Shown here one piece after another: positions 5,928 to 64,000 of a DNA stretch of 64,000 nt. A program made the translations under genes and the position numbers. Source of the stretch: Rhizophagus irregularis (Eukaryota); the NCBI RefSeq assembly GCF_026210795.1, contig NC_089429.1, positions 5,270,001-5,334,000 of the forward strand, read 5' to 3'. Under the pieces are notes generated by a model. It did not search any database. It was not told the DNA's origin and saw only the letters and a list, made by a program, of their open reading frames with translations. Each line of letters opens with the position of its first letter. Position 1 is the first letter of the stretch.

Positions 5928-6076
5928 ATATGGGAGGTGGTCAGTAGAAAAGGGGGAAATCCAAATTTTGGTCAAAATTTTTTTTATCAGTTTACTTTGC
6001 CAATCATGGTCATGAGAACAACCAAAAATCTTAAAATTTTTGAATTTCTCCCTTTTCTACTGACTGCCTCCCATAT
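5928..6076. mobile_element. MITE of about 150 bp with long terminal inverted repeats
   Basis: Left end atatgggaggtggtcagtagaaaagggggaaat matches the reverse complement of the right end, atatgggaggcagtcagtagaaaagggagaaat. It sits inside a short tacttc(t)n(a)n tandem repeat. Confidence 0.8.
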
Positions 6077-37433: not shown

Positions 37434-39260
37434 ATGAGAATTCAAATTATTGTTATTTTATTATCTTCATTGATATTTTCTTCGATTTTATTAACAGTTG
37501 CACACGAAGATAGATATGAAATCGATGTAAATACAAAGGTGTTACATAAGGGACATACAAATAAGGAAAAAACAAAACACGACGACGACGACAACGACGA
37601 CCACGATCACGATCACGATCACGATCACGACGACGACAACGACCACGACGACTGCGACAATGATGACGATGATGATGGTCCAAAAGAATCGGATAAAAAC
37701 AAAGATGATCATGATCATGATCATGATGAAGAGTCACAAAACCAGGATTCACCAGGACAATCACAGTAAATAATTAAGCAATTTTTTTTTCTTATGTAAT
37801 TATTCAATTATTTAACCAATATTCATTTCAAATTTGATATTGATATTTTAGTGAACATAATTCTGGTGATGCAAATACGTAAGTACACACTTCTGATATT
37901 AGTTAATTATCGGTCATTCCCATTCCTTAACTGATTTTTAATTTTTCGTAGAAGTGAAACGCATTCATCTCCTAAAACTTCGAAATCTCCTATTGAATCT
38001 TCACCACCTACAGCACATGAACCTTCACCTCTGAAACATTCACCCAAATCTTCACCACCTTCAGATTCTTCATCTGATTCTTCACCTTCAGATTCTTCAC
38101 CCAAATCTTCGCCCCCAGACGATTCTTCACCTTCAGGTCCTCCACCCAAATCTTCACCCCCAGACGATTCTTCACCTTCAGGTCCTCCGCCCAAATCTTC
38201 ACCTCCAGACGATTCTCCACATTCTTCACCTTCAGATTCTTCACCCAAATCTTCGCCCCCAAACGGTTCATCACCTTCAGGTTCTCCACCTAAATCACCG
38301 CCTCCAGACGATTCTTCACCTTCAGGTTCTCCACCTAAATCTTCGCCTCCAGACGATTCTTCACCTTCAGAATCTCCACCCAAATCTCCACCTCCCTCTG
38401 ATTCTTCACCTGATTCTTCACCTTCAGATTCTTCATCACCTAAGTCTTCACCTCCATCCGATTCATCACCAGATTCATCACCTTCAGATTCATCACCTAA
38501 ATCTTCACCCAAATCTTCGCCTCCAAATGACTCTTCACCTTCAGGTTCTCCACCCAAATCTTCACCTCCAGATGATTCTTCGCCTTCAGATTCATCACCC
38601 AAATCTTCGCCTCCAAATGATTCTTCACCCTCAGGTCCACCCAAATCTTCACCTCCAAATGATTCTTCGCCTTCAGGTTCTCCACCCAAATCTTCACCTC
38701 CAGACGGTTCATCACCTTCAGATTCATCACCCAAATCTTCTCCTCCAGACGATTCATCACCTTCAGATTCTCCACCCAAATCTTCACCTCCAGATGATTC
38801 ATCACCTAAATCTTCACCCAAAACTTCACCTTCAGACGATTCATCACCTTCAGATTCATCACCCAAATCTTCACCACCTTCAGATTCTTCACCTAAATCT
38901 TCACCACCAAATTCTTCACCTAAATCATCGCTTCCAGGTTCCTCAACTCCAGGTTCTTCACCCAAATCTCCACCTTCATTACCTGCTTCACCTCCAACTG
39001 GTTTACCACCCACAATAGATCCTATTCCTCCTAAAGGTGCACTACCATCAGAAGCACCTGGACATGAACTACCACCAGAACCTACTTTTACAGTTACTGT
39101 TGGAGTTCCTAAAACTCCAGTATCACCAAATTTTAGTTCACCAAGTCCAAGTCTGTTGGCAGGTAGTGATGCTAATAAGCCAATAATTTTAGAACCTAAA
39201 TCTATGATCTTAGCCGGTATAATTTTCGGATTAGTTGGTGTATTCTTTACTTTACTTTAG
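37434..39260 (+). CDS. Secreted His/Asp-rich, Ser/Pro-repeat, probably GPI-anchored cell-surface protein; exons 37434-37765, 37852-37878, 37952-39260
   Basis: Signal peptide MRIQIIVILLSSLIFSSILLTVA and a (DH)n tract. Two GT-AG introns keep the frame into SPKSSPPDDSSPSG repeats. Ends GSDANKP..MILAGIIFGLVGVFFTLL*. Confidence 0.85.
38040..38930 (+). repeat. Coding minisatellite of mostly 45 bp units encoding SPKSSPPDDSSPSGS variants
   Basis: Recurrent cacccaaatcttcacctccagacgattcttcaccttcag units. Confidence 0.9.
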
Positions 39261-44900: not shown

Positions 44901-47182
44901 ATGCAATATACAATCTTGCAAACTGTTATGAAAATGGAATAGGAACTGAAAAAAATAAAATTAAGGCATTTGAATTATGTAAAGCAGCAGCTGAAAAAGG
45001 AGATATTGATGCAATAAATAAACTTGGAGAATGCTATTATTATGGAATAGGAACGGAAAAAGATAAAATTGAAGCATTTGAATTATACAAAAAAGCAGCT
45101 GAAAAAGGTCAAATAAAGGCAACCAGTAATCTTGGATATTGTTATCAAAATGGAATAGGAACTGAAAAAAATGAAATTAAAGCATTTGAATTATATAAAG
45201 AAGCAGCTGAAAGGGGGGATATTGATGCAATATGTAATCTTGCAAACTGTTATGAAAATAGAATAGGAACTGAAAAAAATAAAATTAGAGCATTTGAATT
45301 ATATAAAGAAGTAGTATCTAAAGAAGGAGATATTGATGCAATATATAATCTTGCAAACTGTTATAAAAATGGAATAGGAACTGAAAAAGATGAAATTAAA
45401 GCATTTAAACTGTATGAAGAAGCAGCTGAAAAAGGCCAAATAAAGGCAATCAATAATCTTGGATATTGTTATCAAAATGGAATAGGAACTGAAAAAAATA
45501 AAATTAGAGCCTTTGAACTGTATAAAAAAGCAGCTAGAAAAGGTCAAATGAGTGCAATTAACAATCCTGGATATTGTTATGAAAATGGAATAGGAATTCA
45601 AAAAGATAAAATTATAGCATTTAAATTATATAATGAAGCAGCTAAAAAAGGAGATATTGATGCAATAAATAATCTTGGAGAATGCTATTCTTATGGAATA
45701 GGAACTGAAAATGATGAAATTAGAGCATTTAAATTATTCGAAAGAGCAGCTAAAAAAGGTCAAATAAAGGCGATTAACAATCTTGGAGAATGCTATTATT
45801 ATGGAATGGGAATTGAAAAAGATGAGATTAAAGCATTTGAACTGTATGGGAAAGCTGTTGAAAAAGGTCAAATAAAAGCAATCAGTAATCTTGGATATTG
45901 TTATCAATATGGAATAGGAACTAAAAAAGATAAAATTAAAGCATTTAGATTATATAAAGAAGCAGCTGAAAAAGGAGATATTGATGCAATATATAATCTT
46001 GCAGACTGTTATGAAAATGGAATAGGAGCTGAAAAAGATGAAATTAAAGCATTTGGACTATATAAAGAAGCAGCTGAAAAAGGAGACAATGATGCAATAA
46101 ATAATCTTGGATATTGCTATCAAAATGGAATAGGAACTAAAAAAAACATTGTTAAAGCATTTAAATTATATAATGAAGCGGCTGAGAAAGAAGATATAGA
46201 TGTAATATATAATATTGCAGATTGTTATGAAAATGGAATAGGAACTCAAAAAGATAAAATCAAGGCATTTGAATTATATAAAGAAGCAGCTGAAAAAGAA
46301 GATATTGATGCAATAAATAATCTTGGAGAATGCTATTATTATGGAATAGGAACTGAAAATAATGAAATTAGAGCATTTGAATTGTATGAAAAAGCAGCTG
46401 AAAAAGGTCAAATAAGAGCAATCAATAATCTTGGGTATTGTTATCAAAATGGAATAGGAACTGAAAAAGATAAAATTAAAGCATTTGAATTATATAAAGA
46501 AGCAGCAGAAAAAGGAGATATTGCTGCAATAAATAATCTTGCAAACTGTTATGAAAATGGAATAGGAACTGAAAAGGATAAAATTAGAGCATTTAAATTA
46601 TATAAAGAAGCAGCAGAAAAAGGAGATATTGCTGCAATAAATAATCTTGCAAACTGTTATGAAAATGGAATAGGAACTGAAAAGGATAAAATTAGAGCAT
46701 TTAAATTATATAAAGAAGCAGCTGATAAAGGAGATATTAATGCAATATATAATATTGCAAACTGTTATGAAAATGGAGTAGGAACTGAAAAAAGTGAAAT
46801 TAAAGCATTTGGATTATATAAAAAAGCAGAAATAGAAGGTGATATTATTTCAATAAATAAACTTGCAAGTTATTATAAAAATGGAATTGGAACTGAAAAA
46901 GATGAATATAAAGCATTTGAATTATATAAGAAAGCATCTGATAAAGGAGACATTGATTCAATATATCATCTTGGATATTACTATCAACACGGAATAGGAA
47001 CTGAGAAGAATGAAATTAAGGCATTTAGGTTGTATGAGGAAGCAGCTGGAGAAGGTCATATTAATTCAATGCACAAGCTTATATATTGCTATTCTAATGG
47101 AATAGGAACTGAAAAAAATGAAATTAAAGCACAAGAATTATACAATGAATTAAATGTAATTGGTTACATATTCTATGAATAA
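41914..47182 (+). CDS. Protein kinase + very long Sel1-like repeat array (about 30 repeats); 5 exons; 1-bp frameshift near 44608
   Basis: [25 protein letters not shown] and [13 protein letters not shown]. The last exon starts near 43469 and has 108-bp repeats. One unit reads tgttatgaaatgg where the others read tgttatgaaaatgg. Confidence 0.88.
42221..42340. mobile_element. MITE in intron 1 of the kinase-Sel1 gene; a second small element follows at about 42356-42454
   Basis: aaactgtactgtacgaa...ttcgtacagtacagttt TIRs. The second element has taccaaatgggctcat...atgagcccgtttggta. Confidence 0.75.
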
Positions 47183-48224: not shown

Positions 48225-50604
48225 AGAAAAGTTTCGAAGTTATTCTTCGAAACTTACCAATCTTCATGTCCAGGAAATACAACCTACAATAAAAAGATAA
48301 AAGTATTAATAAAAAAAAATTAATTTAATTAAAAAGTTTCGAAGTGAAACTTCAAAACTTACCAATCTGTTAAGATTCGTATATACTTACGAATCTTGGC
48401 CTTCTTTTTCCATTCTTCAGAAACCCACCCGAGACCTAAAAAAAAGAAAAAGAACGGTTAGTAACCGTTCATAATAATAATAAAATAATAATAATAAAAA
48501 CCAAGATTCGTATATACTTATGAATCTTGGTTCCTTCTTTCGGTTCTTTGGAAACCCACCCAAATCTATGAAAAAAAGAAAAGGAACGGTTAGTAACCGT
48601 TCATAATATTAAAAAAAAGAAAAAAAAAACTAAGATTCGGAATAATACTTACGAATCTTAGTTCTTTTACATTATTCAGAAGCCCACCCGAGATCTATAT
48701 AAAAAGTAAAAGAACAGTTAGTAACCGTTCCATAACATTAAAAAAAAATCTAAGATTCATAAGATAGAATACTTACGAATCTTAATAAAGGTTCTCCTTT
48801 TTCCATTCTTTGGAAATCCATCTGAGACCTGGTACATTTACCTCTTCATAGTCATCGCTAACCCAAAGAGGAATCGGAGTACCCATTTTAAGCCAAAAGA
48901 ATGGTACTTTACTTGAAAAAAAAAGAAAAAGAATGGTTAGAAACCGTCCATAATAACAAAAAAAAAAATAATAAAAATTTAAAGATTCGTACCGTCTTTA
49001 CGAATTTTTGAGTTTTCTGTTCTTTGGAAGCCCACCTGAAACCTAAAAAATAAAAGAAAAGAACGGTTAGAAACCGTTCATAATAATAAAATAAAAATAA
49101 AAATAAACCAAAATTCGTACTACTGATTCTTGGTTTTTTCCGTTCTTCGGAAGATACTTGAGACACCCAAGTAAAGATGGTCATCGGTCCTAAAAGACCG
49201 CGGTCCTACGGTCCTACACCATAAAAAGACGGACCGGTCCGTCTTAGTGTAGGACCGTGGTCTTTCGGTCCTGTATCACATATAATAAGACCGTCGGTCT
49301 TTTTAAGAACCGCAGTCTTTTTAAGACCGATCAGTCTTTTTTCTTTTTTTTTTACAAATAAAAAAATTTTTTTCCTTAACTTTATTAGGAATAGCCTTGT
49401 TTTATAAATATTGAACACTAATCGGGATGTTTTTAAATATACAAATTTTTTTTTACAAATGATCATCACATGCGTCATGCACTTACTATTATTGTATTGG
49501 TGATAATAATCGTGATATCTCGCCATCCAGTGATTATAAAAATATGAAACTACCACCATTCGAATCGTCTCAATGAGGCGCGTCGAATGGTATCAAAATC
49601 ATTATTTTATAATCAATAGAAAAAAATTTACATCGGCAAAACTATTTTATAACAAATTCAATAATTTCCAGCTATCTATCGATCCTGGAAATATGATTTA
49701 GCCACCATTCGACGCATCTCGTTGAGACGATTCGAATGGTAGTGGTTTCATCGTTTTATGATCACTGGATGACGAGATATTCCGCTTAAACGCTTTTTTT
49801 GGAGTTAGCGTTTTGACAGGCAACTCTACAAGTGGGGAGAAGTGATTGTCATTGTTTATTGGTTTAGAATTGGTCGGTCTTTATATTATTTTATAAAGAC
49901 CTTCATCAGATTAATAGATTTATTCAATATAAAAATCATTTATTATATGAAGACCGATATGAGGACTGGTCGGTCCTCGGGACCGGTCCTACTGCGCCAC
50001 AAAAAAATGCAAGACCGCGGTCTGGTCCTACAAGTCCCGGGACCGACCGGTCCAGGACCGAGTAGGACCGGTAGGACCGATGACCATCCTTACACTCAAG
50101 ACCTAAAAAAAAGAAAAAGAATGGTTAGTAAACCGTTCATAATATTAAAAAAAATCTAAGGTTCGTAATATAATACTTACAAACCTTAGTTCTCCTTTTT
50201 CCGATCTTCGGAAGTCCACTCGATCCTATAAAAAAAAGAAAGAACGGTTAGTAAACCGTTCCATAAAATAAAAGAAAAAATAAATAAACCAAGATAAGAA
50301 TCTTGGTTCTAACAAAATCACCTTCCTCCATCCCCCTTTCTACGCGTCAGTCCTACAAAATAAAATAATTAAAGAAACGTTAGTTCATTTCTCATATTTA
50401 AAATAAAAAAATTCCCTTTCCCCATTTTTTACTTTAAAGTCTGGTTTCATATTCAAGCTGGCGTCCTATTACGCGTCCTACAAAAAAAAATTATGAAAAG
50501 AAACGTTAGTTCGTTTCTTAAATTTAAAATAACAAAAAACTCTCCCCCTTTTTCCTGTTCTTACTACCTTAAAGTCCAGTTTCGTAGTATTCAAGCCGGT
50601 CGTC
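48225..50604 (-). repeat. Tandem array of about 125-130 bp units, each a micro-exon plus intron on the minus strand, with two hairpins per unit
   Basis: Recurrent aagattcgtatatacttacgaatctt and gaacggttagtaaccgttc palindromes. The minus strand reads GTAAGT...ACTAAC...(T)nAG. Confidence 0.75.
49172..50092. mobile_element. Non-autonomous hAT-like DNA transposon (921 bp) with an 8-bp target-site duplication
   Basis: TIR taaagatggtcatcggtcct vs taaggatggtcatcggtcct (reverse complement of right end). TSD cacccaag (49164-49171) vs cactcaag (50093-50100). Subterminal ggaccg repeats. Confidence 0.88.
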
Positions 50605-51101
50605 AGGCTGGATGTGAGTGGTGCTAGCACCACCCACCTCCGGGTCTACGACCCGTCGCAGTACCTATATGGCCCCTACGGGGCTCAGGAATCCCCCATA
50701 GATCCTCCACAATCTGGGACAACATATGGAACAAATATATATACCAAATAACTAGAAAACAATAGAAAAGAAAGGAATAACGGATATAATGAGAGGGTTG
50801 TCCCAGATGTGGCAGATGTGGCAGATGTTTCAGAAAAAATATGAGAGGACATCCCCCCAGAAAAAGTTTTATTTTTATCCCCCAGATCCACCACATCCGG
50901 AACGTCTGGAACAAGTCAGGATTCCGTCTATTCATCTGTTGGAAGCAGTGAGACAGCAAACCATGTAAGTTAGCAGGTAAGCCCCTAGAAGGTCTATAGA
51001 GCCAGTAAGACCAACCCCGTCCCATCCCCGTCAGAAAAAATAAGTAATTGAACAATGGGTATTGAGAATAGAGCATATCCAGATAAGTTTAGAAGACAGT
51101 A

Positions 51102-51422
51102 CTAATCCGTCTTCCTCTTTTTTGCCTCTTTAAGGCATTTATCAATACACTGTTTACAAGCGTCATCAGAATCTAAGATTTTCTGTCCAAGTTTTTTGCA
51201 TTGCCGATTGTAAGCCGTCTGCTGTCTCTTAGCAGCGGTTTCTTTCTTTTTCTCCTTAGTCTTCTTCTTGATCACCCAGTCTATTCCAGTAAAAGTATTC
51301 TTATGCATACCACAAATTGTGCAGTCACCATGCAGTCGGTAACGCCCATTTGTAGTCATATCTTGTATTTCACTAGCTGTCTCAGTTTCCTTCTTGCACT
51401 TTAGGCAGTAAAAACGTGTCAT
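51102..51422 (-). CDS. Small zinc-ribbon protein, DUF5679-like
   Basis: FYCLKCKKETET...TTNGRYRLHGDCTICGMHKNTF has a CxxC...CxxCG pattern seen in Polinton-type and large DNA virus proteins. Confidence 0.7.
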   Translation of the reverse strand: MTRFYCLKCKKETETASEIQDMTTNGRYRLHGDCTICGMHKNTFTGIDWVIKKKTKEKKKETAAKRQQTAYNRQCKKLGQKILDSDDACKQCIDKCLKEAKKRKTD

Positions 51423-51466
51423 TTTAATATTTGAAGTCTAAAACCATTCCTTTAATTTGTCGTAAT

Positions 51467-52557
51467 ATGTCACACTTAGAAAATTACTATAAATACTACA
51501 ATCTCTCTGGAGTATCAGCACGAATTCTAAAAGGTGAAGAGCACTACAACCTATACAAAAAGCCCCTAAAGGAAAAGTCAACAGAACGCCCAAAGGTAAT
51601 TGTATGGAAACCAAATGCAACACATCAGGCAAATCTTGCAGAGATGCCAGTTGACCCAAAGGATTCCACTATTTCCTCGTAGTGGTAGAAGTCGCGGGTA
51701 AACGAGTCGACGCAGAACCCCTAAAGGATAAAACTGCAAATAGGATTCTCAATGGATTTGTTAAAATCTACAGAAGAAATCGCATTAAGCCACCAACACA
51801 TCGAATGGAGACAGACTCCGGATCAGAATTCACCAATGATCAGGTACGTGATTTTTTCTTGAACAGCCTAGGGGTGATGATGAGGTTCGGAGAACCAGAA
51901 AGACACAAACAGCAATCATACGCTGAACGAGCTATCCAAGCAATCCAGGAACCTCTCCTAAAACGAATGGTAGCACAGTAGTTGAAAACCGGGGTGACAT
52001 CCGTGGAATGGTCAGAAGATTTCCATAATATAGTGAGTAAAGTAAATGAACTCTGGCAGAGAAATCCCCCAGACATTCTGACAGGGTCACCCAAAGTGTC
52101 AAAAAAGACGGATCTCCTCTCTGAAGGAGCACGTGTCAGAGTCAAGTTAGATGAACCTATTTCTGTACTTGGTAACAAACTTCACGGAAAATTCCGTACA
52201 GGAGATATAAGATGGAACCCAAACATTCGTGTAATCAAAAAAATGATACTCTCACCCGAACAGCCTCCTATATATCTCCTTAATGGACCACATGGTCGAT
52301 TAGGTGTATCCAGATGTGCATATACCCGAAAGGAATTGCAAGTAGTTCCTATTAATGAAAAGCCTCCACCTGACTCTGTGATAAGAGGACAACCTGAAAG
52401 ATTTGTTCCTGAGCAGATACTTCGGCATCGCATTAGAAAAGGTCAAGACCAGTATTTGGTTAAGTGGGAGTGCTATCCAGACACTGAGGCTACTTGGGAA
52501 CCTGCTGACCGGTTGAAGGAGGATGTCCCTGACTTAATTCGCAAATTTTGGGAATAA
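51467..52557 (+). pseudogene. Retroviral-type (rve) DDE integrase with a C-terminal chromodomain; frameshift near 51660, stop at 51979-51981
   Basis: HQANL (expected QADL), then after the shift YFLVVVE, ETDSGSEF and YAERAI. The chromodomain is FVPEQILRHR..QYLVKWECYPDTEATWEP. Confidence 0.9.
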
Positions 52558-52581
52558 AAAAAATAGAAGAATTAAAGGGTC

Positions 52582-53472
52582 TTATTTTTTATCACCTCGA
52601 TTAGCATCAGGAACTATCGGGATAAAAACATTCTTCCCGTCACAGGTAAAGGCTATATGTTCACGTGATTCATGGACATCATAATTATAACGTTTCAGAC
52701 ACGTTCGGCTTAACCCAACCTCCCTATGCTTGTATCCATCTAAAACTGCAAGATCCTCAGTGATAGCATAATCAGGGGTAAGTTTGATTGACACTCCCTT
52801 TACCATGCCGAATGTCCTACCTGTTCCTGAAGCACCAGATATGTTGTATGGGGTCTGGTACAAAATCCCGAATGTCAAAATCCTGAAAATCCCAAACCGG
52901 GCAGCATTATGCTTAATGTTGGCCAATATTTCGGGATTTCGTACCATTCGGGATTTTGACATTCGGGATTTTGTACGGATCCCGTTGTATGTAATACTCT
53001 TGTCGATATCCAACCCTAATTCCTCAGCAGCTTCTCTCTGAATAAAAGACGCATTAGCACAAGTGTCTGCTAAACACTGAATTGCTATTCCATTAACCTC
53101 CCCATCCAGTGCTAAAAGATCTTTAGTATTCTCTAAACGAGCTATGTCAATATCCATAGGATCGTCTACCCTGATATCCTCTTCTTGTTCCTCCTCAACT
53201 AGGTCCTCCGGAATCTCTGTGACTTTTCTAGCAGACAATAACTCCTCCTGAAGAATCTCACGGAGTAATTTCCTAAAGTCTGCAGACCTTAACAGGCTTA
53301 ATAAGTCATTCTTAGTAACAGCTTTTGCAGGTATATACTTACTACCAGTAACTTTCACAGGAATCTTAACAGGGGTTGCTTTACCTTTCAATGGCACACT
53401 AGAAGAGCTAACTGCTGTCTTATTTGGGGACGACTTAAGAAGTTTTGAGATACTCGAACCTACTTTTTTTTT
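52582..53472 (-). CDS. Retropepsin-type aspartic protease in the -1 frame relative to gag; interrupted in frame by a MITE
   Basis: GEVNGIAIQCLADTCANASFIQREAAEELGL (DTG-like active site), ISGASG flap and EVGLSRTCL. The frame is open back to the A9 run at 53464-53472. Confidence 0.8.
   Translation of the reverse strand, partial: KKKVGSSISKLLKSSPNKTAVSSSSVPLKGKATPVKIPVKVTGSKYIPAKAVTKNDLLSLLRSADFRKLLREILQEELLSARKVTEIPEDLVEEEQEEDIRVDDPMDIDIARLENTKDLLALDGEVNGIAIQCLADTCANASFIQREAAEELGLDIDKSITYNGIRTKSRMSKSRMVRNPEILANIKHNAARFGIFRILTFGILYQTPYNISGASGTGRTFGMVKGVSIKLTPDYAITEDLAVLDGYKHREVGLSRTCLKRYNYDVHESREHIAFTCDGKNVFIPIVPDANRGDKK
52851..52983. mobile_element. 133-bp MITE with about 37-bp TIRs and an 8-bp TSD inside the protease gene
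   Basis: TSD gttgtatg at 52843-52850 and 52984-52991. TIR gggtctggtacaaaatcccgaatgtcaaaatcc vs gggatccgtacaaaatcccgaatgtcaaaatcc. Confidence 0.92.
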
Positions 53473-54890
53473 GACCCAACACGAACCATATAGACATCAC
53501 CATCTTTTTCTCTCAATTCTACCTTTTCACCAAAACTCACAGTATCAATGTCCATAGCATCATCATTAAGATCGAGGTTTCTCATTGCTCGGGCCAAATC
53601 CAGATCATCACGTCTATCTTTAGCCTTCTGAAGTTATTTTGTAAGTATTTTAGACGTCCCATGTTTATATCCCATAATAAGATCAATAGCATTTTGATGA
53701 TCATCCAAAGTCCACTCAGGAGCATCAGGATCATCACCAACATCAGGTTCTACATAACCATCATCCCAATCAGGATCCTGATGATCCTGAACAACACGTC
53801 TCTGTGGTTTTAGTCGAACAGGTTTAATCTGCTGTCTATAGACTGGTGGATTACGAACTGGCCGAGCCTGTAATTGTTTAAATTGCACCTGAAAATTCTT
53901 GGTAAGTTCCTCAGCTTGAGCCTTAAGTAACTCTTGTAATTGTTCTTGAGTAACCCCAGATGACTTTGATGTCAGTACGACAGGTTCCTGTTTTCCTAAC
54001 GGAGGTTGAGTTACATCACTGTAATCTGCTTGAAGTCGTCGATTTCTATCTTGTAACCCCAAGCGCATTTCAGCCCTTCTCCGTTCTAAATTTCTCAGAT
54101 GTTTAACCAAGTCATCAGGATTAAGATTACTAAACCTTTCTGCTTCAAAAATATTATCAGCCGAAAGACCTCTAAAGAACTGGTCGATAATAAGATCATC
54201 AGTTAGTTTTAGTAATTTTCCAGCCCTCTTTACAGTTCTATAAAATGCATCAACTGGCTCATTTTCCTGATAAAGACTGTTAAAACGGATACGTTTCTTT
54301 TCATCTAAAATAGTTGGAAATTGTGTTCTAAGCCAATAAAGCGCCTGGTTAGGTTTAATACCTGGAAAAACTATAGGATGATTATTAGCAGCAGCAACAC
54401 CAGCATCTGCAGTAGCTGGAGCAACTCTATCTGTCGGACGAGCACCAGCTCTTCCCCAAGTTTTATCTCCACCTATTAAATCATGGGTAGGAATAAATGC
54501 TGCTCTAATAGTTACTAATGCATTAGCTGCATCTGTAGCATAAACATGTGCTTCAGACCCATTTACATAGGTACCTGCATTTGGTCCTCCTGCACCTTCT
54601 GGTATTACTAATGCTACAAAAGCAGCTAAATTAGCTCCACCTCTTGAAGTGATACCAGAAAGTTCCCAATTTTTTCCTGTAATTTCTCGATCAAACCATT
54701 CAGCCGCTTCACCAGCCATGCAGCTTCTAAGTATACCCATAGCTCTTTTCCAAGACTCTGGTGGCCCTCCAGCAGCGTATGGGTTAAGATTAATAGTATC
54801 AAGATAACCCATATAAAGCCTAACAAATGTATCAATATCATCAGTAGCTTTACCCTCAAAAATCGGCAATTCTATCGCAGTGGTAGCCAT
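53460..54890 (-). CDS. gag: Ty3/gypsy-like Gag (capsid) protein; TAA at 53634-53636 is probably premature, and the frame continues to TAG at 53460-53462
   Basis: LPIFEGKATDDIDTF, LRSCMAGEAAEWF and MHR-like FNSLYQENEPVDAFY..LIIDQFFRGL. The read-through tail is LQKAKDRRDDLDLARAMRNLDLNDDAMDID...GSKKK*. Confidence 0.78.
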
Positions 54891-54943
54891 ATCGTCTCTA
54901 GTGGATTGTTTAAAAGAGGTGGAGGAGGGTTCAATTGTCTAAT

Positions 54944-55669
54944 TCAAAACCATTGTACCTGAATTCTAAGAGCAGCTATCTGTTGGAAAAGTCTATTCCT
55001 AAGTCTCCCTAATGTCTGAATCCCAAAACGCACCCTATTATTAGCATGTGCTAGCTGTGCATTAACCTGTCCAAGTTGCGCATTAACCAATACAAGTTGT
55101 CCTCCAGTCCGAGTAGCCCTCAGCCGCCAATGATTTAAAAGGATATTACCACGATTCACAGCATTTTGAGCTTCATTATGATTCCTTACTGCTTGAGTAT
55201 AATCTGCTTGTAATACATTACGTTCATGTCGTGCCTGATTACGTTCACCTATAGCCCGTCGACGAAGCTCTACCATAGTATCATAATCTCTTTGCAGGTT
55301 ATAGTTTTCTTCTATGAAATTATCATTGGCAGCACGTATAATAACTAATTGACGTTCTAAATTAGTAAACGTTTCATCAAATGCATTTATCTTACCTTGT
55401 GCAAAAACTAACAAATCTTTTGTAATACCAAGTTCTTCATGTTTTGCTTTACAGCGATACATTAATATATTAATAATATGTTTGATTTGATTATTTGCCT
55501 CCTGTATCTCTGAATCAACAGTTAAACGACCCCTGGTAGTTAATAAATTTGCATGAGCCTTTAGTATTCTAACTAATTCATCATCGACTTTTTCATTGAC
55601 CAAGTGTGCAGGAGGCAGTCCAGTAGGTTCTGAAGGAGTATAAACTGAAATTGGTGTTGATGTCAACAT
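54944..55669 (-). CDS. Coiled-coil protein directly upstream of gag, possibly its original N-terminal extension
   Basis: 241-aa heptad-rich ORF. Past the TGA it reads IRQLNPPPPLLNNP up to the gag ATG, which is one base out of frame. Confidence 0.65.
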   Translation of the reverse strand: MLTSTPISVYTPSEPTGLPPAHLVNEKVDDELVRILKAHANLLTTRGRLTVDSEIQEANNQIKHIINILMYRCKAKHEELGITKDLLVFAQGKINAFDETFTNLERQLVIIRAANDNFIEENYNLQRDYDTMVELRRRAIGERNQARHERNVLQADYTQAVRNHNEAQNAVNRGNILLNHWRLRATRTGGQLVLVNAQLGQVNAQLAHANNRVRFGIQTLGRLRNRLFQQIAALRIQVQWF

Positions 55670-55700
55670 AGTATTTAAACTAAGTTAGAATAAAATTCAA

Positions 55701-56924
55701 ATGGATCTTTATGTATACAATTTGGACGAGTACACGACCGACTCAAGACAAGGCAATGAGTTTGCTCCATCATGGCCCTTTCGATTAGCCGTAGCAGGTA
55801 GCTCAGACTCAGGTAAGACAACTATGATCATTAATTTGTTAATGGGTGACAAGAAAGCAAAGGAGGATGGTAATCGGTATGTACTATGTGATGCAGTACT
55901 TTTAGTTGGCAGATATCTTGACGAGCCGAAGTGGGCAGTTGTACATGATTTTTTTGAAGAGGAGAAGATCCCATTCACTGCAATAACTCATAGTGAGATT
56001 CCAGAGATTGACTCTTTCGACCCTACTCAAGCTACTGTGGTAATCTTCGAGGATCTGATGGATGCACCTAAAAAAATCCAGGATCTCATCACTGGTTACT
56101 TTATACATAGACGACACAAAAATATTTCATGTATTTATGTAGCCCAAAGATTCTTTGCCATTCCTAAGGCTATTCGAGAAAATGTTAACTACATCTCACT
56201 ACATGGAGGTCATGGGAGCCTTACAGATACTAAGAGAATCATCCGCCTATATACAGAAGAATCAGAATCATTAGCACCAGTAATTGATGATCTTACTCTG
56301 CAACGTGAATTTGTAGTGTTTGATCTTAGATGGTCCAAGAGTGATCTACTGTCCATTCGAGTAAGATGGGATACTAGTCTCAGTTCTATCACAGAGCAAT
56401 TTCAGTTCGATCCTAGTTCAATCTCAGTTCAATCTCAGTTTGATCCAAGTTTGAACCCAGTTCGATCTCAGTCTGAACCCAGTTCAATCACAGTTCGATC
56501 CAAGTTTAGTCCCTATGGTCAGAAAGCTGTATTTGAAGCAAAAAAAGGTGGACACTTGATTGAATTTGCTCGGGTATTTCCATCCCCTAAAGAACGTCAA
56601 CATTTACTTGTACCTGGTGTCTTAGCCAAGAATGCAGATACCTGGATTAAATATGTCTTTTGGGAAGCTTATGGACTCTCTGGTAAGACCATAGGAGCTG
56701 ACTTTCAGGATTTCTTAGCAAAAGTACAGGGTAGGACTGCAAAGACTGAAACTCTGAAAACTGAGAATGTGAAGGAGTTATTCTCCCGATATGAAGCCCT
56801 GAAGTCTAGTCGCCCTCTGGATAATAAACAAATAATAGAAGGTATTGAAGTCCTTCTACAAATCTTTTCTAAGAGTCACATGGACCGTCGAGCATTACAA
56901 GTAGGGATTAATAGTATCTTGTAA
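55701..56924 (+). CDS. A32-like (FtsK/HerA superfamily) genome-packaging ATPase with a C-terminal extension
   Basis: Walker A AVAGSSDSGKTT, Walker B VVIFEDL, and signature RRHKNISCIYVAQRFFAIPKAIRENVNY (GRH..IS....Q....IP..IR.N type). Confidence 0.88.
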   Translation: MDLYVYNLDEYTTDSRQGNEFAPSWPFRLAVAGSSDSGKTTMIINLLMGDKKAKEDGNRYVLCDAVLLVGRYLDEPKWAVVHDFFEEEKIPFTAITHSEIPEIDSFDPTQATVVIFEDLMDAPKKIQDLITGYFIHRRHKNISCIYVAQRFFAIPKAIRENVNYISLHGGHGSLTDTKRIIRLYTEESESLAPVIDDLTLQREFVVFDLRWSKSDLLSIRVRWDTSLSSITEQFQFDPSSISVQSQFDPSLNPVRSQSEPSSITVRSKFSPYGQKAVFEAKKGGHLIEFARVFPSPKERQHLLVPGVLAKNADTWIKYVFWEAYGLSGKTIGADFQDFLAKVQGRTAKTETLKTENVKELFSRYEALKSSRPLDNKQIIEGIEVLLQIFSKSHMDRRALQVGINSIL

Positions 56925-57468
56925 GAATATCAAGTAATTCGTCTGCAGAAGCTCTAAGAATCATAGCACTTTTTTTACGGCCTTCAAAGTCAATCCTTAA
57001 CATCCTAGCTTTTAACCCAATAGCTCCTAAGGCTCGAGAAGCAAAGTTCTTAGTCATCGGATTTCTTACATGACTTACATAGTTCTCATAGAATATAGTA
57101 AAGGGTTCATCAATACCATCCGGGTATGTATTCCGTAAGAACTGATATAAGGCAATTTCCCCACTGTCACATCCAATGGCTATAAGCTGTTCAAGAAGCC
57201 ACTTCCTAATATCTTCATATGGCTCTCCATCCATAATTTTCATATCCAGTCTTTGTGTAAACAATTGTGTAAAGTCCACATTACTTCCCCGATGAATGAT
57301 CTGAACTAACTTATCCCTAGCAAGTCCCAAGGCTTGTAGAGGGTCATTCTCATCACTAATCTTCTTTATAATCTGTCTGTATAATACACTGGATAATCCT
57401 CTATATGCTGTTTTTGGAGTGATTACTCTACAGTTTTGGCACTGGTTTATTACGATTGATGTTGACAT
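56908..57468 (-). CDS. Hypothetical protein with a C-terminal winged-helix-like segment resembling that of the element's helicase
   Basis: FTIFYENYVSHVRNPMTKNFASRALGAIGLKARMLRI aligns by eye with helicase VQEFYRVYTSYC..TPLSKINASRILSNELGINSRKIRV. Confidence 0.6.
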   Translation of the reverse strand: MSTSIVINQCQNCRVITPKTAYRGLSSVLYRQIIKKISDENDPLQALGLARDKLVQIIHRGSNVDFTQLFTQRLDMKIMDGEPYEDIRKWLLEQLIAIGCDSGEIALYQFLRNTYPDGIDEPFTIFYENYVSHVRNPMTKNFASRALGAIGLKARMLRIDFEGRKKSAMILRASADELLDILTRYY

Positions 57469-57513
57469 GGCTATCTTTCTTTATGTAAAAAAGAATTATT
57501 CAAAATTAAGTAA

Positions 57514-58092
57514 CTATTCGGAGCAGTCCTTGCACAACTTGTCCGTTAAGTCACTTGGGCTTACAGGCATGAGACATTCCCTACACAACTCAATATTAAG
57601 CTCTGCAAGTCTCGGGGTATGGTCCTCCAAAGTTCGTGGACGACCGGAAGGACCGATAGTTGTCATATCAGTCATATCCTGCTGTAAGATAAAATCATCA
57701 TATTCATCTTGGTCAGCCTGAATAGCAGTCCTGATTTGTTGTATATCATTGAAAGTTAACCGCTGCCCATCAAGATTTTCCTCATTATAGCGTGTTTCAT
57801 TGATGATTTCCTCTATAAGCGCCTCTTCTTCATAATGGACAAGGTAGTAATCCTCAACTACCTCATAGTCACTCTCAATCAGTCTATGATATGTTCTAGT
57901 ACCACGTCGAACATAACGTCCTGTATCTGTATTTAAATATACAGGTTGCTCTTCAGGTGGAGGTGCAGTTTGTCTACAGACAAGCCTTCCATCAATATAA
58001 TCATGGGATTCCATAACTATTCGATTAAAGGTATCTCCACCGATAATAATTGGACGTCCAGTTATAGGGTTAGCTATATAAGGGTAAGACAT
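57514..58092 (-). CDS. Protein with two 2-cysteine-adaptor-like (NPxTGR) motifs and a C-terminal Cys4 zinc finger
   Basis: NPITGRPIIIGGDTFNRI and NTDTGRYVRRGTRTYHRL; CRECLMP...LCKDC. Confidence 0.62.
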   Translation of the reverse strand: MSYPYIANPITGRPIIIGGDTFNRIVMESHDYIDGRLVCRQTAPPPEEQPVYLNTDTGRYVRRGTRTYHRLIESDYEVVEDYYLVHYEEEALIEEIINETRYNEENLDGQRLTFNDIQQIRTAIQADQDEYDDFILQQDMTDMTTIGPSGRPRTLEDHTPRLAELNIELCRECLMPVSPSDLTDKLCKDCSE

Positions 58093-58153
58093 GTCTTTTT
58101 TCTGTACGTGTCTACATACCTAATAGTTTTCTTCAATTTACAATAACCAAGTG

Positions 58154-58410
58154 ACACGGTCATCAGTCCTTATCAAAAAATACGAGAATACCTGATAACG
58201 AGATTACATGGTCATCAATCCTTATCGAAAAATACAAGAATACCTAATGACGAGGTTACATGGTCATCAATTCTTGTCGAAAAATACAAGAATATCTGAT
58301 GATAATGTTACATGATCATCAGTCATTGTTGCGAAACACGAGGATACCTGATAATAAGATTACATGGTCATCAGTCCTTGTCGCGAAACATGAGGATACC
58401 TGATGAATAA
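58154..58410. repeat. Five tandem 52-bp repeats in the element's main intergenic gap
   Basis: Units starting acatggtcatc(a)-like at 58154, 58206, 58258, 58310 and 58362. Confidence 0.92.
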
Positions 58411-58776
58411 GTTATTGGATTATTGGCCTAAAATGCATTCATGGAAAAACCGTGGAATTTTTTACAGTACAGTGTATAAAAAAAGTGCTAAACTTTGAGA
58501 TCGGGACACGATGTCTCGATCTAATAATTTCGATGTCATGTGACTTCATGCGGTACGTAGATCATTTCCTTTTTGGGCGATACCCGTTCCACAAAAATCG
58601 ATTTTGGTAAAAATGCGTTTGGAATCTTGTGTAACATAAATTTCCTTTTTAGGTAATTCGGGATTACGCGGTAATGCCGGCCGGATCTAAAAAATATGAC
58701 TCTGCAGGGTAATTCCTACAAAAGTCAAGTACAAAATGCTTATTCCTGTTGAGTCCATTCATTCCACTCCCAGTCC

Positions 58777-59151
58777 CTAAGGATTGCCTCCCCATCTATG
58801 TTCACTTAATGCATGCTCTATGGTTTCCCTCTCTTGGGGGTCCACGACCATCCCATTCCTAAGCATTTTCTCCATAATATAAAGCTGATCCTCGGTGAGG
58901 CGGTCTATCCATCTTTTATAGAAGTCGTTTACATCTTCAAATGTTATCCAGTTAACATTCCCTTTTTCGAATGGCTTTCCAAGAGCTCGGACATACCCGA
59001 TCGTAGTGGCATAATTTTTCCACCTCTTATATGCCTCTTGACGAACTTCCTGCCACCACACTCTATCTACCTTACTCGCTGCAATAAGGTCAGTATCCGG
59101 GATCTTTGCGACAATGCGTTTGACTATTTCTACTGGTAATCAGTCCAACAT
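58777..59151 (-). pseudogene. F-box protein with a stop at codon 4
   Basis: From the ATG at 59151: MLD*LPVEIVKRIVAKIPDTDLIAASKVDRVWWQEV, in frame with ORF 58777-59061. It fits the F-box pattern LP.EI...I......DL...S.V.R.W. Confidence 0.72.
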
Positions 59152-59260
59152 GATGTTATGTTACTCATACTATAGCTATCTTCAATTACTGTATGCCTAT
59201 TACACATGGATAAAAAATATAAACTAAATTCGTACAGGATCGTAGGACCACAGGAGCCGC

Positions 59261-59731
59261 TTATGCAAGAAGTTCTGTTAAGGTTTTCTCAGCCTCGTTT
59301 TTAGTAATAGCTCGCTTTGGGGGACCGGTTGATGAGTCCTTAGTCGCATTATAATACAATTCGAAGAGGGCCTCAAGCTTATCTAGGAGAGCTTGTTTAT
59401 TCTTGTATGATTCACGGATTTTTGCTATCTTAGCAGTATATGCCGCATTATCTGGGAAGAGTTTTCTGGCCACGAACTTCACATATGATACAGGAGACCT
59501 TGCCGTCTGGATTCTCTTGATATACTTCACATGATCCTGGACAAGGTAGCTGGTTTTGCTAAACCCAGATACTAATGCGACTACTATAGTGTCCTTCAAT
59601 GCACGGATAATCTTGAGGACAGTTTCATCAGAGATAATGGTGAACTGATTGCGTGATGCCTCATAGATAACTTCCTCACTAGTACTGTCAGTGCTATTAA
59701 CAATGCTTGCTAATTCAGTATATGTTGACAT
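59261..59731 (-). CDS. Hypothetical 156-aa helical protein of the element
   Basis: Intact ATG-started ORF with element-like composition, co-oriented with polB. No motif recognised. Confidence 0.65.
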   Translation of the reverse strand: MSTYTELASIVNSTDSTSEEVIYEASRNQFTIISDETVLKIIRALKDTIVVALVSGFSKTSYLVQDHVKYIKRIQTARSPVSYVKFVARKLFPDNAAYTAKIAKIRESYKNKQALLDKLEALFELYYNATKDSSTGPPKRAITKNEAEKTLTELLA

Positions 59732-59844
59732 GATTCCTTATACTTTTTTGTACTTTGTAATAAATAGGAATCTTCAAATTGACTTTACATTCAAGCAAGA
59801 AAAAATATATATACCTACTGTAAACCCAACCGCATTCTTGGCAA

Positions 59845-61728
59845 TCATGTCCAGATAACCTTGTTTGCATTTTTCACATGGCAGTATCCTGCGGTTTCAA
59901 ACTTGAGAGCTTTCAATGCTTTGGATGCATTTTCTGGACAAGTGATAAGTGTAGGACTACTCGGCTGTTCCTCTAGAATAAATCCATCTGTATGGATGCG
60001 TCGTACTTTATCCTTATATGGTTCTAATAACTCTAAAGTCGTCTTCCGTCCATGTGCTAATAAGAATGGAGCGATCCTAGGATACTCACCCTTGAAGGGA
60101 CTACCTGGATTTGTGAACTGGAATCGCCACTGGTCAGATCCTACTGGTATGATGGAGTCAAGTGTGTGGCCTTCCAGAAACTTGAATAGATCTGTTTGAT
60201 CTGTGGTGAGTGTCTTGTAATTGCGTTTCCTCTGGCAGAGTGCTCCCCATAATGTATTAAGAACTCTCTTTGCAACACGACCAGCCACGCCACCCTGGTT
60301 CTTTATATTGAAGAGAAAGTGAACATACTCACCAAATATTACAGTCCCAGGAATTCTTGCTTCTCTGTCATATATCAAGGCATTTGGCTTTCCATCCTGG
60401 ATTAACTGTATATCGAGACCAAGTTTCTTTGCTCGTTGTAAGTCAATGAATGTATAGACTCCCCTCTTATTCTGTCGGAAGAGAATGTCATTACCACTTA
60501 CCTTGCCCCTTTGGGGCGCTCTCTGGGAGCTAGCACGAAATAATCCATACAAGGCATAACCTCTGTGGTCTACAAAGTCTTTGAGTATTTGAAACTTACC
60601 TTGTCGGATTGGAAAGTTTGCATTTGATTGCTGGATACTTGGATACAAACTTGTCACATCGTATTGCCTTCCATAGCCCTTCCATTCATTGTCTGCCCAG
60701 ATAAGACCTCCCATCATTGCATCATTTATCCACTCTGCTTCGACTGGATCAAGAGGATCATTAGCTGGAACTCCTACACTAAACCGTTCGAAAAGCCAGA
60801 GAGCAGTTCTCTTATATGACCAGTTGTGGTAAGATAAGTCGATTCTTAGACCGAACTTCTTTGTAGCCTGTAGAAAGGAATCCCGCTCTTCATGGATCCT
60901 CTGGTATATTTCCTCAAGTGTTTCATATATTCCAGTTTTACGATTCTTCTCAATAGGGATGAAGGAGTAACTATCAGAGTTCTTACCTTTCTGAAACTGT
61001 CTAACTGTAAGAGACTTAACTGTTTTACCATTGTATATTGTTACTACATTATTAACCCCATCTTCACGATAAACAAAGAGAGACTTTTGTTTTCTATCTA
61101 ATTTACTAGGGTGGAGTCTTCCGGGATTCAGTGCAAGAGAGTAGTGGCCTTCAGACAGGATGAGAGTTGCACGTCTGTCAGATTTGCTCTTGGAAATTCG
61201 AGTAGAATCCCCTACAATATTAAGTGCAAGGCTTCCTGCAAGTTGTTCAACCTTATCCATATATGAGACTGGAACTGGAGCATCACGATTGAGATCTAAT
61301 GCCTTTTTGATATATTCGGGCTTCTTTATAGTCTCGGGTATTTTAGAGAATATACCATAGATATGCTTCAGGCATTCATACAGGCAATCATTTAGCTTCC
61401 CGTTGCAACCTCCTGCAACCGGTGGGGCATCTCTCATATAAATTATGAATCGTTCAAAATAATCAGGGTCTGCGTCATCCGGTAGTTGTGCTTCGTCGTA
61501 GTGGTCCAAGAGTGAGAAGAGGCTGGCTGGTTGGTTTCCTGATGTCCATCCACCGGGTTTCCAGTTTTCATAGGGGAGCAGGATCTGAAATTTATGTGTC
61601 GGATACCGGGATTGGAGTCGCTGTCCAAGTCTTGCTATTGCTCCTCTGGAAAATCTTGCGCCTGAATACTGTAATTCTTTGATATCCGGTCTTGTAGGTA
61701 AAGCACAGACAATCTCTGAATAAACCAT
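59845..61728 (-). CDS. polB: Divergent family B DNA polymerase (Polinton/protein-primed type likely)
   Basis: MMGGL, motif A QYDVTSLYPS, motif B KRVLNTLWGAL and motif C RIHTDGF. The N-terminal NDCLYECL...GHYSL is a possible OTU-like Cys/His pair. Confidence 0.85.
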   Translation of the reverse strand: MVYSEIVCALPTRPDIKELQYSGARFSRGAIARLGQRLQSRYPTHKFQILLPYENWKPGGWTSGNQPASLFSLLDHYDEAQLPDDADPDYFERFIIYMRDAPPVAGGCNGKLNDCLYECLKHIYGIFSKIPETIKKPEYIKKALDLNRDAPVPVSYMDKVEQLAGSLALNIVGDSTRISKSKSDRRATLILSEGHYSLALNPGRLHPSKLDRKQKSLFVYREDGVNNVVTIYNGKTVKSLTVRQFQKGKNSDSYSFIPIEKNRKTGIYETLEEIYQRIHEERDSFLQATKKFGLRIDLSYHNWSYKRTALWLFERFSVGVPANDPLDPVEAEWINDAMMGGLIWADNEWKGYGRQYDVTSLYPSIQQSNANFPIRQGKFQILKDFVDHRGYALYGLFRASSQRAPQRGKVSGNDILFRQNKRGVYTFIDLQRAKKLGLDIQLIQDGKPNALIYDREARIPGTVIFGEYVHFLFNIKNQGGVAGRVAKRVLNTLWGALCQRKRNYKTLTTDQTDLFKFLEGHTLDSIIPVGSDQWRFQFTNPGSPFKGEYPRIAPFLLAHGRKTTLELLEPYKDKVRRIHTDGFILEEQPSSPTLITCPENASKALKALKFETAGYCHVKNANKVIWT

Positions 61729-61811
61729 TTGATGTATTTATGAATTGTGTTCAGTTGTAATATAGGTTTTTTATACAAAAAATATAAGATAACTAAGAGG
61801 TGCTTATCTTA

Positions 61812-64000
61812 TTAAAAGGAGTCAATCTTGCTACATACACGATCAAGATCCTCTTCATCCCAGTCATCGACGATTCCATTGGCGGCTTCCCATTCACGTT
61901 CCATATTAGTCTTTGGACGTTCCTCGGGGATCTCTCGCGCTTTTCCTTTATCTGCCCTCATAGTTTCATAACCAGAGGTGGTAGGGATAATCTCGGCATC
62001 AGTATCCTCCTTATATGCTCTTATTAGATCTGCAAGCTCTTTACGACTGGGTGTTTTAGGTAAGTACCCATTATATTCTATCCAGTCCTTGAAGCGGTCT
62101 ACTACTTCCCTAAGGTAGTACTGGTACTCGTCCTCAATACGTGTTGTGGGACATTCCTCTACTTTAAACACAAGTATTTCCCAGTCATAGTCGTCTGACG
62201 CGTCTTGGTACTTAGCCCATAAATCCTTACCTGTATTGTAGAGATCATTGAAGACCTGGTCCTTTGAATTCTTGACCCATGGATTACGATCCCATCGGTG
62301 TCTTTCATGCCAAGCCCAGTGTGCTTGAGTACCTTCCTTTGGTTTAGGGTCCCGGTCAACTTCTAGTTCTGTGTCAGGTTCTGGGATAGGTTGCTCTTCA
62401 GGAGCCGGTTCTGGGTCAGGCTTAGTGACAGATGCAGAAGATTCTGCAGGAGACTCAGGTTGTTGCTTAGGAACTTGGTCTGCAGTTGTAGGATCTGAGT
62501 CAGATAGCAAGTCATCTAAAACGTCATAGTCATTATCAGCTTTAAGTGCAGGTTCCTCATCAGATAGATAACAGTCTGAGAAGCTATCTATAGTTTCATC
62601 AGTATCTGACTCTATAGGAGCTGGAGATTCCTCAGGAATAGGATCCTCATTGATGACAGGTGCGGGTTTTACCTTCAAGCAATCAGGCTTAAGTGGTACT
62701 GGTGGTGGAGTCTTTTTGGAAACTGGTTGCTTTTCAGTAGGTTTTTCTTCAACAGGTTTCTCAACAACTAGCTCCACTTTCTCTTGATCTACTTGCGATT
62801 TACTAGCTGGATTATATATATTTGCCAAGAACTTCACCAAGGCATTTGGATCAGATGCGGGCTTCTCAGGAGTTTCTACATCTATTCCTTCTATGTCTAT
62901 CTCGTCTGTTTCGTGGATCCATTTTTTAGTGAGAAACTTCTTGTAAAGGTCCTCCCTGGATATACTGTAAACTCGTGGTGTTGCCTTACCTACACGTATT
63001 TTTCTGCTATTTATACCCAACTCATTTGATAGGATTCTAGAAGCGTTTATCTTTGATAGGGGTGTAATGCAATGAGTTTCACAATATGAAGTATATACCC
63101 TATAAAATTCTTGAACAGGTAGGTCAGTTATATAAGTGTCCTTTATGAATTGAAATAGGGGTGGGAGAGTTGATATCATGTGATCCTGCTTAGATGTTGT
63201 CATAGGTGGTGGATTTCCATTGAAGTCCGGGTAAGCGTCTGCAATGGCTCTCAAGTAAGCATAGAATGCCTCACTGGCGCCTGGGTATTTCATAGCGTCA
63301 CTGAGTTTCTTAAAGTAGTTGAGGTCTCCCTTGCGGGATGGTGACACATCCAAGAATACTGTGCGCCTATCGTCATTCTCCACTCTGAGAGCATTTTCAT
63401 TGGTGAGTACAATGGTGGATATAAAGTTTTTGTAATGTGTTGGCATCTTGTATTTTTCATGGATTTCCATTATGTCGCCTGTTACCTTATCCTTCAACGA
63501 TCGATACAGATTATTCCACTGGCTTTTTTCTGTAGGCATTTCCTCGAGGAGAAAAAGAACCTTACCCTGTAATTGCCCATTGAAACTTCCAAGAATCGTT
63601 TGAGGATCGCTGGTCTTATAAACAAGTTGAGTACCTAAGACACTACGTTGAATGAAATCTGTTATAATACTCTTACCCCAACCCTGTCCAGATTTCAGGT
63701 AGAGAATCGAATACATTTTCCTTCCAGCTGCCACACCGGCCAACCACTTTATGATATACTCAGTAAGATTCCAATCGCCTGAACACCAGATATCCTGAAT
63801 GTGGGAGAAGATAAATTTAACTGCGAGGTGGGTTGTAGATTCAAAAGTGGATATCGGACGCAGGATATGGAGAAATCCTAGGAAGATATTGAGATAAAGT
63901 TGGCCACCTAGTTTAAAGATACGGGATTTTTGAGGGTCACAGGTAGCTACACATACAGTACTATATTCGATCATAAACCATTTGTTGATATTGAATTCAA
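61812..64000 (-). CDS. Superfamily 3 helicase (D5/DUF5906-like) with a wHTH and an acidic Pro-rich tail; 5' end beyond the window
   Basis: Walker A SGQGWGKS, Walker B FLLEEM, motif C VLTNEN and arginine finger DDRRT. The frame stays open to the window edge (EFNINKWFMIEY). Confidence 0.88.
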   Translation of the reverse strand, partial: EFNINKWFMIEYSTVCVATCDPQKSRIFKLGGQLYLNIFLGFLHILRPISTFESTTHLAVKFIFSHIQDIWCSGDWNLTEYIIKWLAGVAAGRKMYSILYLKSGQGWGKSIITDFIQRSVLGTQLVYKTSDPQTILGSFNGQLQGKVLFLLEEMPTEKSQWNNLYRSLKDKVTGDIMEIHEKYKMPTHYKNFISTIVLTNENALRVENDDRRTVFLDVSPSRKGDLNYFKKLSDAMKYPGASEAFYAYLRAIADAYPDFNGNPPPMTTSKQDHMISTLPPLFQFIKDTYITDLPVQEFYRVYTSYCETHCITPLSKINASRILSNELGINSRKIRVGKATPRVYSISREDLYKKFLTKKWIHETDEIDIEGIDVETPEKPASDPNALVKFLANIYNPASKSQVDQEKVELVVEKPVEEKPTEKQPVSKKTPPPVPLKPDCLKVKPAPVINEDPIPEESPAPIESDTDETIDSFSDCYLSDEEPALKADNDYDVLDDLLSDSDPTTADQVPKQQPESPAESSASVTKPDPEPAPEEQPIPEPDTELEVDRDPKPKEGTQAHWAWHERHRWDRNPWVKNSKDQVFNDLYNTGKDLWAKYQDASDDYDWEILVFKVEECPTTRIEDEYQYYLREVVDRFKDWIEYNGYLPKTPSRKELADLIRAYKEDTDAEIIPTTSGYETMRADKGKAREIPEERPKTNMEREWEAANGIVDDWDEEDLDRVCSKIDSF

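Follow-up and report, generated by a model that had tools for sequence, protein, structure and literature searches.

How does an element with a DNA polymerase of its own express a protease whose reading frame lies one base out of register with the gag-like frame ahead of it? The question is raised by a stretch of 64,000 nucleotides of Rhizophagus irregularis (the window; contig NC_089429.1 of assembly GCF_026210795.1, positions 5,270,001 to 5,334,000), whose best protein matches were to R. irregularis, at 92%. A preliminary description had placed a programmed -1 ribosomal frameshift here, at a run of nine A's (A9) followed by a weak hairpin. Judged by sequence comparison, A9 at the gag–protease junction is a real, conserved and programmed recoding site; what slips there, polymerase or ribosome, is weighed below.

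The junction and the element around it

The minus strand was said to read GGG TCA AAA AAA AAG TAG at the end of the gag frame, and it does (Table 1). A -1 slip gives KKKVGSSISKLLKSSPNK..., continuous with the protease ORF as described, and the -1 frame stays open for 296 codons, through the catalytic DTC. From 53496 to 52582 this frame translates as KKKVGSSISKLLKSS... and leads into an aspartic protease (ORF and domain reading). Its first ATG, at 53157, lies 105 codons beyond the A run, in agreement with the claim that no ATG is near the start of the protease ORF. The junction A9 is the single A/T tract of at least nine in 51100–64000, compared with 71 in the AT-rich host part (1–48300). The hairpin fared differently: the proposed weak stem 3' of the slippery site folded no better than shuffled sequences, and longer downstream windows gave z values of +0.6 to +1.3. 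It is also shifted or disrupted in the nearest relatives (L001–L003), and it was rejected.

Table 1. Features of the element and of the gag–protease junction (window coordinates)
Feature	Position	Strand	Basis or remark
DUF5679 small Cys-rich ORF	51102..51437	-	domain search
rve integrase with chromodomain, convergent on protease	51428..52557	+	rve E 9e-6, below gathering score
-1 frame ORF: ~100-codon Lys/Pro/Ser linker plus retropepsin (Ddi1/A2-like)	52582..53496	-	DTC 53067-53065
MITE-like insert inside protease ORF	52843..52991		30-nt inverted arms, 8-bp target duplication
Hairpin of the preliminary description, unsupported	53441..53461	-	folding -1.9 kcal/mol, z +0.22
A9 run, recoding site (gag frame TCA AAA AAA AAG TAG)	53464..53472	-	read from sequence
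gag-like ORF, ATG 54890 to TAG 53462-53460	53460..54890	-	predicted retroviral-type CA fold, coiled coil, basic KKK tail
Coiled-coil ORF, overlaps gag start by 19 nt	54872..55684	-	ORF reading
A32-like DNA packaging ATPase	55689..56924	+	Pox_A32 E 9e-8
Protein-primed-type family B DNA polymerase (PolB)	59845..61737	-	DNA_pol_B_2 (PF03175) E 1.3e-8
D5-like SF3 helicase, runs beyond window	61812..63998	-	DUF5906 E 1e-16, Pox_D5 weak

The element extends from ~51 kb to the end of the window, at ~40% GC, with one of its ends inside the window. It comprises the D5-like helicase, PolB, the A32 ATPase, the coiled-coil ORF, gag, the protease and the convergent integrase. Three hallmarks of Polintons are present, namely the protein-primed PolB, the retroviral-type integrase and the A32-like packaging ATPase. 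No Pfam or PHROG match to a jelly-roll capsid, a penton or a cysteine protease was obtained with the ORFs of the window part and of L036 (the element exceeds the window), and PHROG matches of the small element ORFs were uninformative. None of the scanned ORFs matched a reverse transcriptase (RT); the protease ORF ends and the convergent integrase comes next. Being without RT, the element is not an LTR retrotransposon. Gene order was kept in distant loci of at most 11 kb: of 58, the integrase lies opposite the protease in 44, and the ATPase is upstream in 12. One of these, L036, spans PolB through DUF5679 on one 11-kb contig and has an ORF 57% identical to the window PolB; the integrase is intact (366–389 aa) in L036, L029, L027 and L014. 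This conserved order argues that the gag–protease pair belongs to the element itself and is no transient insertion.

Several further features were observed along the element and the window. F-box ORFs occur in the element at positions that differ by lineage (window 58777–59139, L036 4229–4753, L047 2213–2656). Past the DUF5679 end, L047 has a degraded D5-like piece (5464–6285) and L057 long nested inverted repeats (2395–5971). Imperfect dispersed repeats (48360–50340), interrupted by nested inverted-repeat inserts (49189–50090, arms 49507–49620 and 49675–49788), occupy what is presumed to be the left end of the element. Two Sel1 repeat arrays of the host, each of 108-nt period, lie at 43440–47182 (+) and 16043–17319 (-), the larger with a one-base shift near 44550–44618; these repeats dominated a repeat scan of the window. 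Elsewhere in the window there are a ubiquitin-like plus weak PARP/ART ORF (22783–23820, +), an MLKL N-terminal-like ORF (34928–35632, -) and a strongly skewed segment (37907–39260) in which both strands are open for ~440 codons, with no Pfam match on the minus frame. The Sel1 arrays and the MLKL-like domain are host genes which, like the best protein matches, indicate a fungus of Rhizophagus type.

The Gag is predicted to have a retroviral-type CA fold, by single scores that are modest but concordant. The Retrotrans_gag domain matched 17 of 35 aligned Gag homologs (best E 4e-5), and the Gag profile matched the CA C-terminal domain of PEG10 (E 8e-5). With the predicted model (pLDDT 69), Foldseek returned at the top almost only retroviral or retrotransposon capsid chains (best E 0.008), VIA placed capsid chains at ranks 1–29 (Z 9.2–5.7), and the Atlas neighbours were retrotransposon Gags. 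The fold matches are mostly to the C-terminal CA domain; the N-terminal lobe aligned only at high rmsd. No zinc knuckle was visible in Gag. The protease model (pLDDT 82) matched Ddi1 retropepsin domains at E 3e-8 in the fold search, whereas the protease alignment, searched by sequence against solved structures, gave no match. Between 14 close pairs (L003 used three times), linker differences at codon positions 1, 2 and 3 of the -1 frame numbered 116, 109 and 198, with 134 synonymous to 123 non-synonymous changes; this substitution pattern is a signature of coding in the -1 frame of the linker.

Three observations concern the architecture of Gag. In P0011, a Gly/Ala/Asn/Pro-rich insertion with short strands (residues 74–175) divides the predicted CA N-terminal lobe. 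Most homologs contain the motif M-D-[IVT]-[DS] twice, once in the gag tail ~25–30 residues ahead of the A run (window 53560–53540) and once at the protease start just ahead of the protease domain (window 53157); it is a candidate cleavage or interaction motif. Gag itself lies in the -1 frame of the coiled-coil ORF. In a set of 17 loci (window 54872–54890, L006, L008, L018, L020, L026–L029, L031, L032, L036–L039, L048 and L050), the end of the coiled-coil frame lies beyond the A of the gag ATG by 19 nt in 13 and by 16 nt in 4, and the frame is open for more than 200 codons upstream in 12. No slippery run is present at this overlap, which is possibly a termination–reinitiation site, a second non-standard step for Gag.

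The window copy is a decayed member of its element family. Its gag frame holds a TAA at 53636–53634, 57 codons ahead of the TAG, which the first reading had missed; because of this stop, the copy cannot make the Gag–protease fusion. The TAA is private to the window copy. Other copies have CAA, at 146,112 of 147,698 summed depth in sequencing run X1, 4,956 of 5,334 in X4, 3,121 of 3,327 in X17 and 215 of 307 in X15, where the remainder is another variant. The coiled-coil ORF carries a premature stop (54946–54944), the integrase is broken by one frameshift and one stop, and the MITE-like insert, with its duplicated target at 52991–52984 and 52850–52843, adds 141 nt in frame to the protease ORF.

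Conservation of the A run among relatives

Alignment of the protease recovered 58 metagenome loci, the range covered being Rhizophagus and metagenomes of soil or roots; two scans of viral contigs for relatives found none. Thirteen loci without a scorable gag end were excluded from junction scoring, and the other 45 together with the window gave 46 junctions. At 85% protease identity these form 26 clusters, with identity between members down to 33%. The window is a separate cluster only through its insert, so the 26 clusters correspond to ~25 lineages; for the same reason it was omitted from the protease tree. Folding and the counts of stops, codons and donors were done on 26 representatives, in which L009 stands in for L008 (A8, broken).

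The run was A9 in 38 of the 46 junctions, A10 in 4, A11 in 3 and A8 in 1, that is, at least nine A's in 45. The protease was offset from gag by -1 in 42 junctions, by 0 in 3 and by +1 in 1; in the four exceptions, stops or additional indels separate the ORFs, or the run is the A8 one. A continuous in-frame gag–protease fusion was found in none of the 46. From the run, the -1 frame was open for at least 190 codons in 40 of 46 (a stricter motif count gave 29, an undercount due to its pattern, and the length criterion was used); upstream, it closes within 0–12 codons. Run length and frame offset are thus conserved across copies, and, rare variants apart, neither copies in a single frame nor a sequencing error, which the preliminary description had named as grounds against it, account for the junction.

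Three codon phases of the run are found (xxA AAA AAA AAG; CAA AAA AAA AGR; ACT AAA AAA AAA), and on the protease tree the phase changes in four places or more. All intact junctions, whatever the phase, have an A AAA AAA heptamer in frame at the run; among the 46 there was neither another heptamer class nor an A7 version. A stop follows the run directly in 21 of 26 lineages and lies 2–5 codons off in the other 5. The codon preceding the run ends in A in 24 of 26, against a background of 35 of 137. The sequence 3' of the run is A-rich and cannot be aligned across lineages. RNA folding 3' of the run in the 26 representatives gave a mean z of +0.12, with 1 of 26 below -2, equal to control windows; a conserved 5' or 3' fold at the junction was rejected by folding across these representatives.

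Elsewhere in the coding sequence of the element (53,241 nt), runs of at least nine numbered 1 versus 3.4 expected (P 0.098) and runs of at least eight 7 versus 13.1 expected (P 0.024), a modest depletion. None of the 7 other KKK in this sequence was encoded AAA AAA AAR. Indels in the run were rare among genomic copies. The deepest sequencing run, X1, had a 1-base deletion at 0.5%; X4 had a 2-base deletion at 4% of summed depth, and X17 had 1-, 2- and 3-base deletions at 4.6, 5.0 and 1.0%, along with deletions of 1–2 bases at four sites elsewhere, a pattern that error or decay would produce. A programmed -1 site for Gag and Gag–protease, as originally proposed, is therefore strongly supported by conservation, and its hairpin stimulator is not.

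Slippage at the run and its alternatives

We consider it very probable that a slip at the run, by polymerase or by ribosome, makes the Gag–protease fusion, and unlikely that any of the explanations that dispense with a slip is correct. Public gene models join gag to protease by an intron: 80 of the 81 NCBI models with both parts skip the junction, and one join string recurs 30 times. The same 81 models nevertheless use 33 distinct join strings. A donor lay near the run in 11 of 26 representatives compared with 14 of 26 for a control window, without positional conservation, and a conserved splice donor was rejected on that comparison. The GT after the run arises simply where AAG meets the stop, and position +5 is G in 2 of 26; no GT..AG joint occurred in the sequencing-run contigs (none proven RNA), and a run that is spliced out would not be conserved. 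Splicing is thus very unlikely, and the public models that bridge the junction by introns are probably wrong. One of the 81 models (P0019) is in frame through the junction, and the 2-base deletion, which accounts for 4–5% of summed depth in a single contig of X4 and another of X17, would fuse the frames. Such sequences suggest that rare fused copies may exist, and replication slippage could in this way generate rare genome copies with the frames joined (A10 or A7), from which protease would be provided in trans. Against this, X1 lists only its 1-base deletion, the X17 deletions at other places look like error or decay, and no scored junction is continuously fused, which makes the explanation highly improbable.

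The protease could also be made separately, either by starting at the conserved Met of its MDID motif or from a transcript of its own; the overlap would then be incidental. Gene callers do begin ORFs of ~141 aa at this Met, ahead of the protease domain. The 61–119-codon linker upstream of it is, however, open and coding in the -1 frame, and that frame closes just upstream of the run; we regard separate initiation as a distant prospect. As the window copy has decayed at other sites, a homopolymer sequencing error or the decay of a once-fused ORF might be suspected. This reading is largely refuted by comparison among loci, since the same offset occurs in ~25 lineages with identity down to 33%, and of 22 full-length gag ORFs to which gene callers gave no intron, 20 stop at KK[KR] or just past it; its probability is close to nil.

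The two kinds of slip yield an identical S-K-K-K-V product, and protein data therefore cannot separate them. Either way, a single transcript would give mostly Gag and a minority of Gag–protease fusion via A9. In the first case, the host RNA polymerase would insert one extra A and ribosomes would enter the -1 frame by normal decoding. We put the chance that this is the slip at A9 at a little under even, and hold polymerase slippage to be at least as likely as ribosomal -1 frameshifting. It is favoured by the retention of nine A's in three codon phases, meaning that length and not phase is conserved; by the lack of any shorter run, other heptamer class or predicted 3' structure at the junctions; and by the rarity of such runs elsewhere in the element. 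The run is a homopolymer of about the length of the RNA–DNA hybrid, conserved independently of codon phase, as in transcriptional slippage, and the frame-independence of a run is used as an argument for such slippage in the accessible text of Olspert 2015 (PMC4552492). In the available parts of the respective papers, bacterial RNA polymerase slips efficiently on 9 A/T (Atkins 2016, PMC5009743), ~10% added-A transcripts are cited for A8 and A9 in mammalian genes (PMC3520932), yeast Pol II insertions rise exponentially with tract length (Gout 2017, PMC5650487), and ribosomes slide little on A9/A10 in an E. coli system (Koutmou 2015, PMC4363877). A passage of PMC3520932 counts against polymerase slippage, as frequent slippage of yeast Pol II is given there for tracts above 11, not 9. 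No transcript with an added A turned up, insertions staying below 1% in X1, X17 and X18, these being contigs, which drop rare variants, and none proven RNA. Further points against it are that the depletion of long runs elsewhere is only modest, that the A ending the preceding codon is explained because the in-frame A AAA AAA heptamer alone suffices, and that the stop adjoining the run in most lineages suits a ribosomal pause.

These last two points favour a ribosomal -1 frameshift without RNA structure, in which the overlapping heptamers A AAA AAA and A AAA AAG, together with slow termination, would lead to Gag-KKKV-protease. The X XXY YYZ heptamers are there, as the preliminary description held, and they lie in the upstream frame like that of a canonical -1 signal, but its 3' stem-loop stimulator was not found. 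A -1 heptamer offset is common between gag and pol, according to the sections available of Atkins 2016 (PMC5009743). On the other side, a 3' stem-loop stimulator was found neither in the window nor in the 26 lineages, neither heptamer alone needs nine A's, the 46 junctions include no A7 or other heptamer class, and the stop is 2–5 codons distant in 5 of 26. In the same review, as far as its text is available, A AAA AAG is strong in E. coli, but A AAA AAC is among the strongest heptamers with mammalian ribosomes. The three codon phases fit RNA-polymerase slippage at least as well as the ribosomal slip originally proposed, which we consider a credible mechanism, though one with a less than even chance of being the right one.

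Related systems and biological meaning

In retroelements, a minority of fusion protein lets the protease dimerise within the assembling Gag shell. By analogy, the protease of the window element would dimerise in, and then mature, a Gag shell that replaces the missing jelly-roll capsid, and the element may thus assemble particles. CA-fold Gag, a retropepsin in the -1 frame and an expected minority fusion are shared with Ty3/Gypsy, retroviral gag-pro(-pol) and PEG10. Unlike Ty3/Gypsy and retroviruses, the window element has no RT/RNase H after the protease, its gag ends at the site, and it has its own DNA polymerase. PEG10 uses a pseudoknot (accessible text of PMC5009743), whereas no 3' stem-loop stimulator was found at the window junction. 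Transcriptional slippage is exemplified, in the literature as far as accessible, by Thermus thermophilus dnaX (A9 in the mRNA), potyvirus PIPO (GA6) and Ebola GP. With these the junction shares a run whose length is conserved whatever the phase, which appears rare in other coding sequence and in which one added A would open the -1 frame. They differ in that dnaX, PIPO and GP depend on bacterial or viral polymerases, and the window element would depend on nuclear Pol II.

The Polinton/Maverick of Glomus intraradices (Rhizophagus irregularis) has pPolB, rve integrase, A32 ATPase and host group in common with the window element. It has no detectable major capsid protein according to the available text of Bellas and Sommaruga 2021 (PMC7805220), and Mavericks have recently expanded in R. 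irregularis according to that of PMC8647823. A 2026 preprint (10.64898/2026.06.19.733378) groups Glomus and Rhizophagus ATPases with Maverick-Polintons, and its accessible part yielded no mention of 'gag'. Compared with the Glomus Polinton as described, the window element has an integral predicted CA-fold Gag and retropepsin with an A9 -1 junction. A MELD-related element with 'Matrix/Capsid/NC/Pro' genes appears in the legend to Fig. 5 of Starrett et al. 2021 (PMC8502044). As this legend lists Gag- and retropepsin-like genes, the gene content was probably already noted. The accessible text of that paper names no host for the element and does not discuss protease expression, its sole 'frameshift' concerning a human relic; its maps or GenBank files may annotate the junction. 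In the mostly open-access literature on Polinton/Maverick gag, retropepsin, frameshift and slippage, as far as its text was available, the junction is not reported.

In its widest form, the interpretation is that a fungal Polinton lineage swapped its jelly-roll capsid and cysteine protease for a retrotransposon Gag and retropepsin, so that dsDNA made by the polymerase of the element would be enclosed in a retrovirus-type shell whose Gag:Gag–protease ratio is set by Pol II slippage on A9. We regard this as speculative and, taken as a whole, rather doubtful; if true, it would be a DNA virus whose capsid is of retro type, and a case in which Pol II slippage is put to productive use. The Gag is a candidate capsid protein for the Glomus/Rhizophagus Polinton, which is reported to have none that is detectable. 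A Gag–protease module with ratio control appears to be kept under selection in a DNA-polymerase element without reverse transcriptase, and its junction would be a natural, structure-free recoding signal of nine bases in a eukaryote. Together, these features suggest that particles are formed by a mobile element which has recently expanded in the main fungal symbionts of plants.
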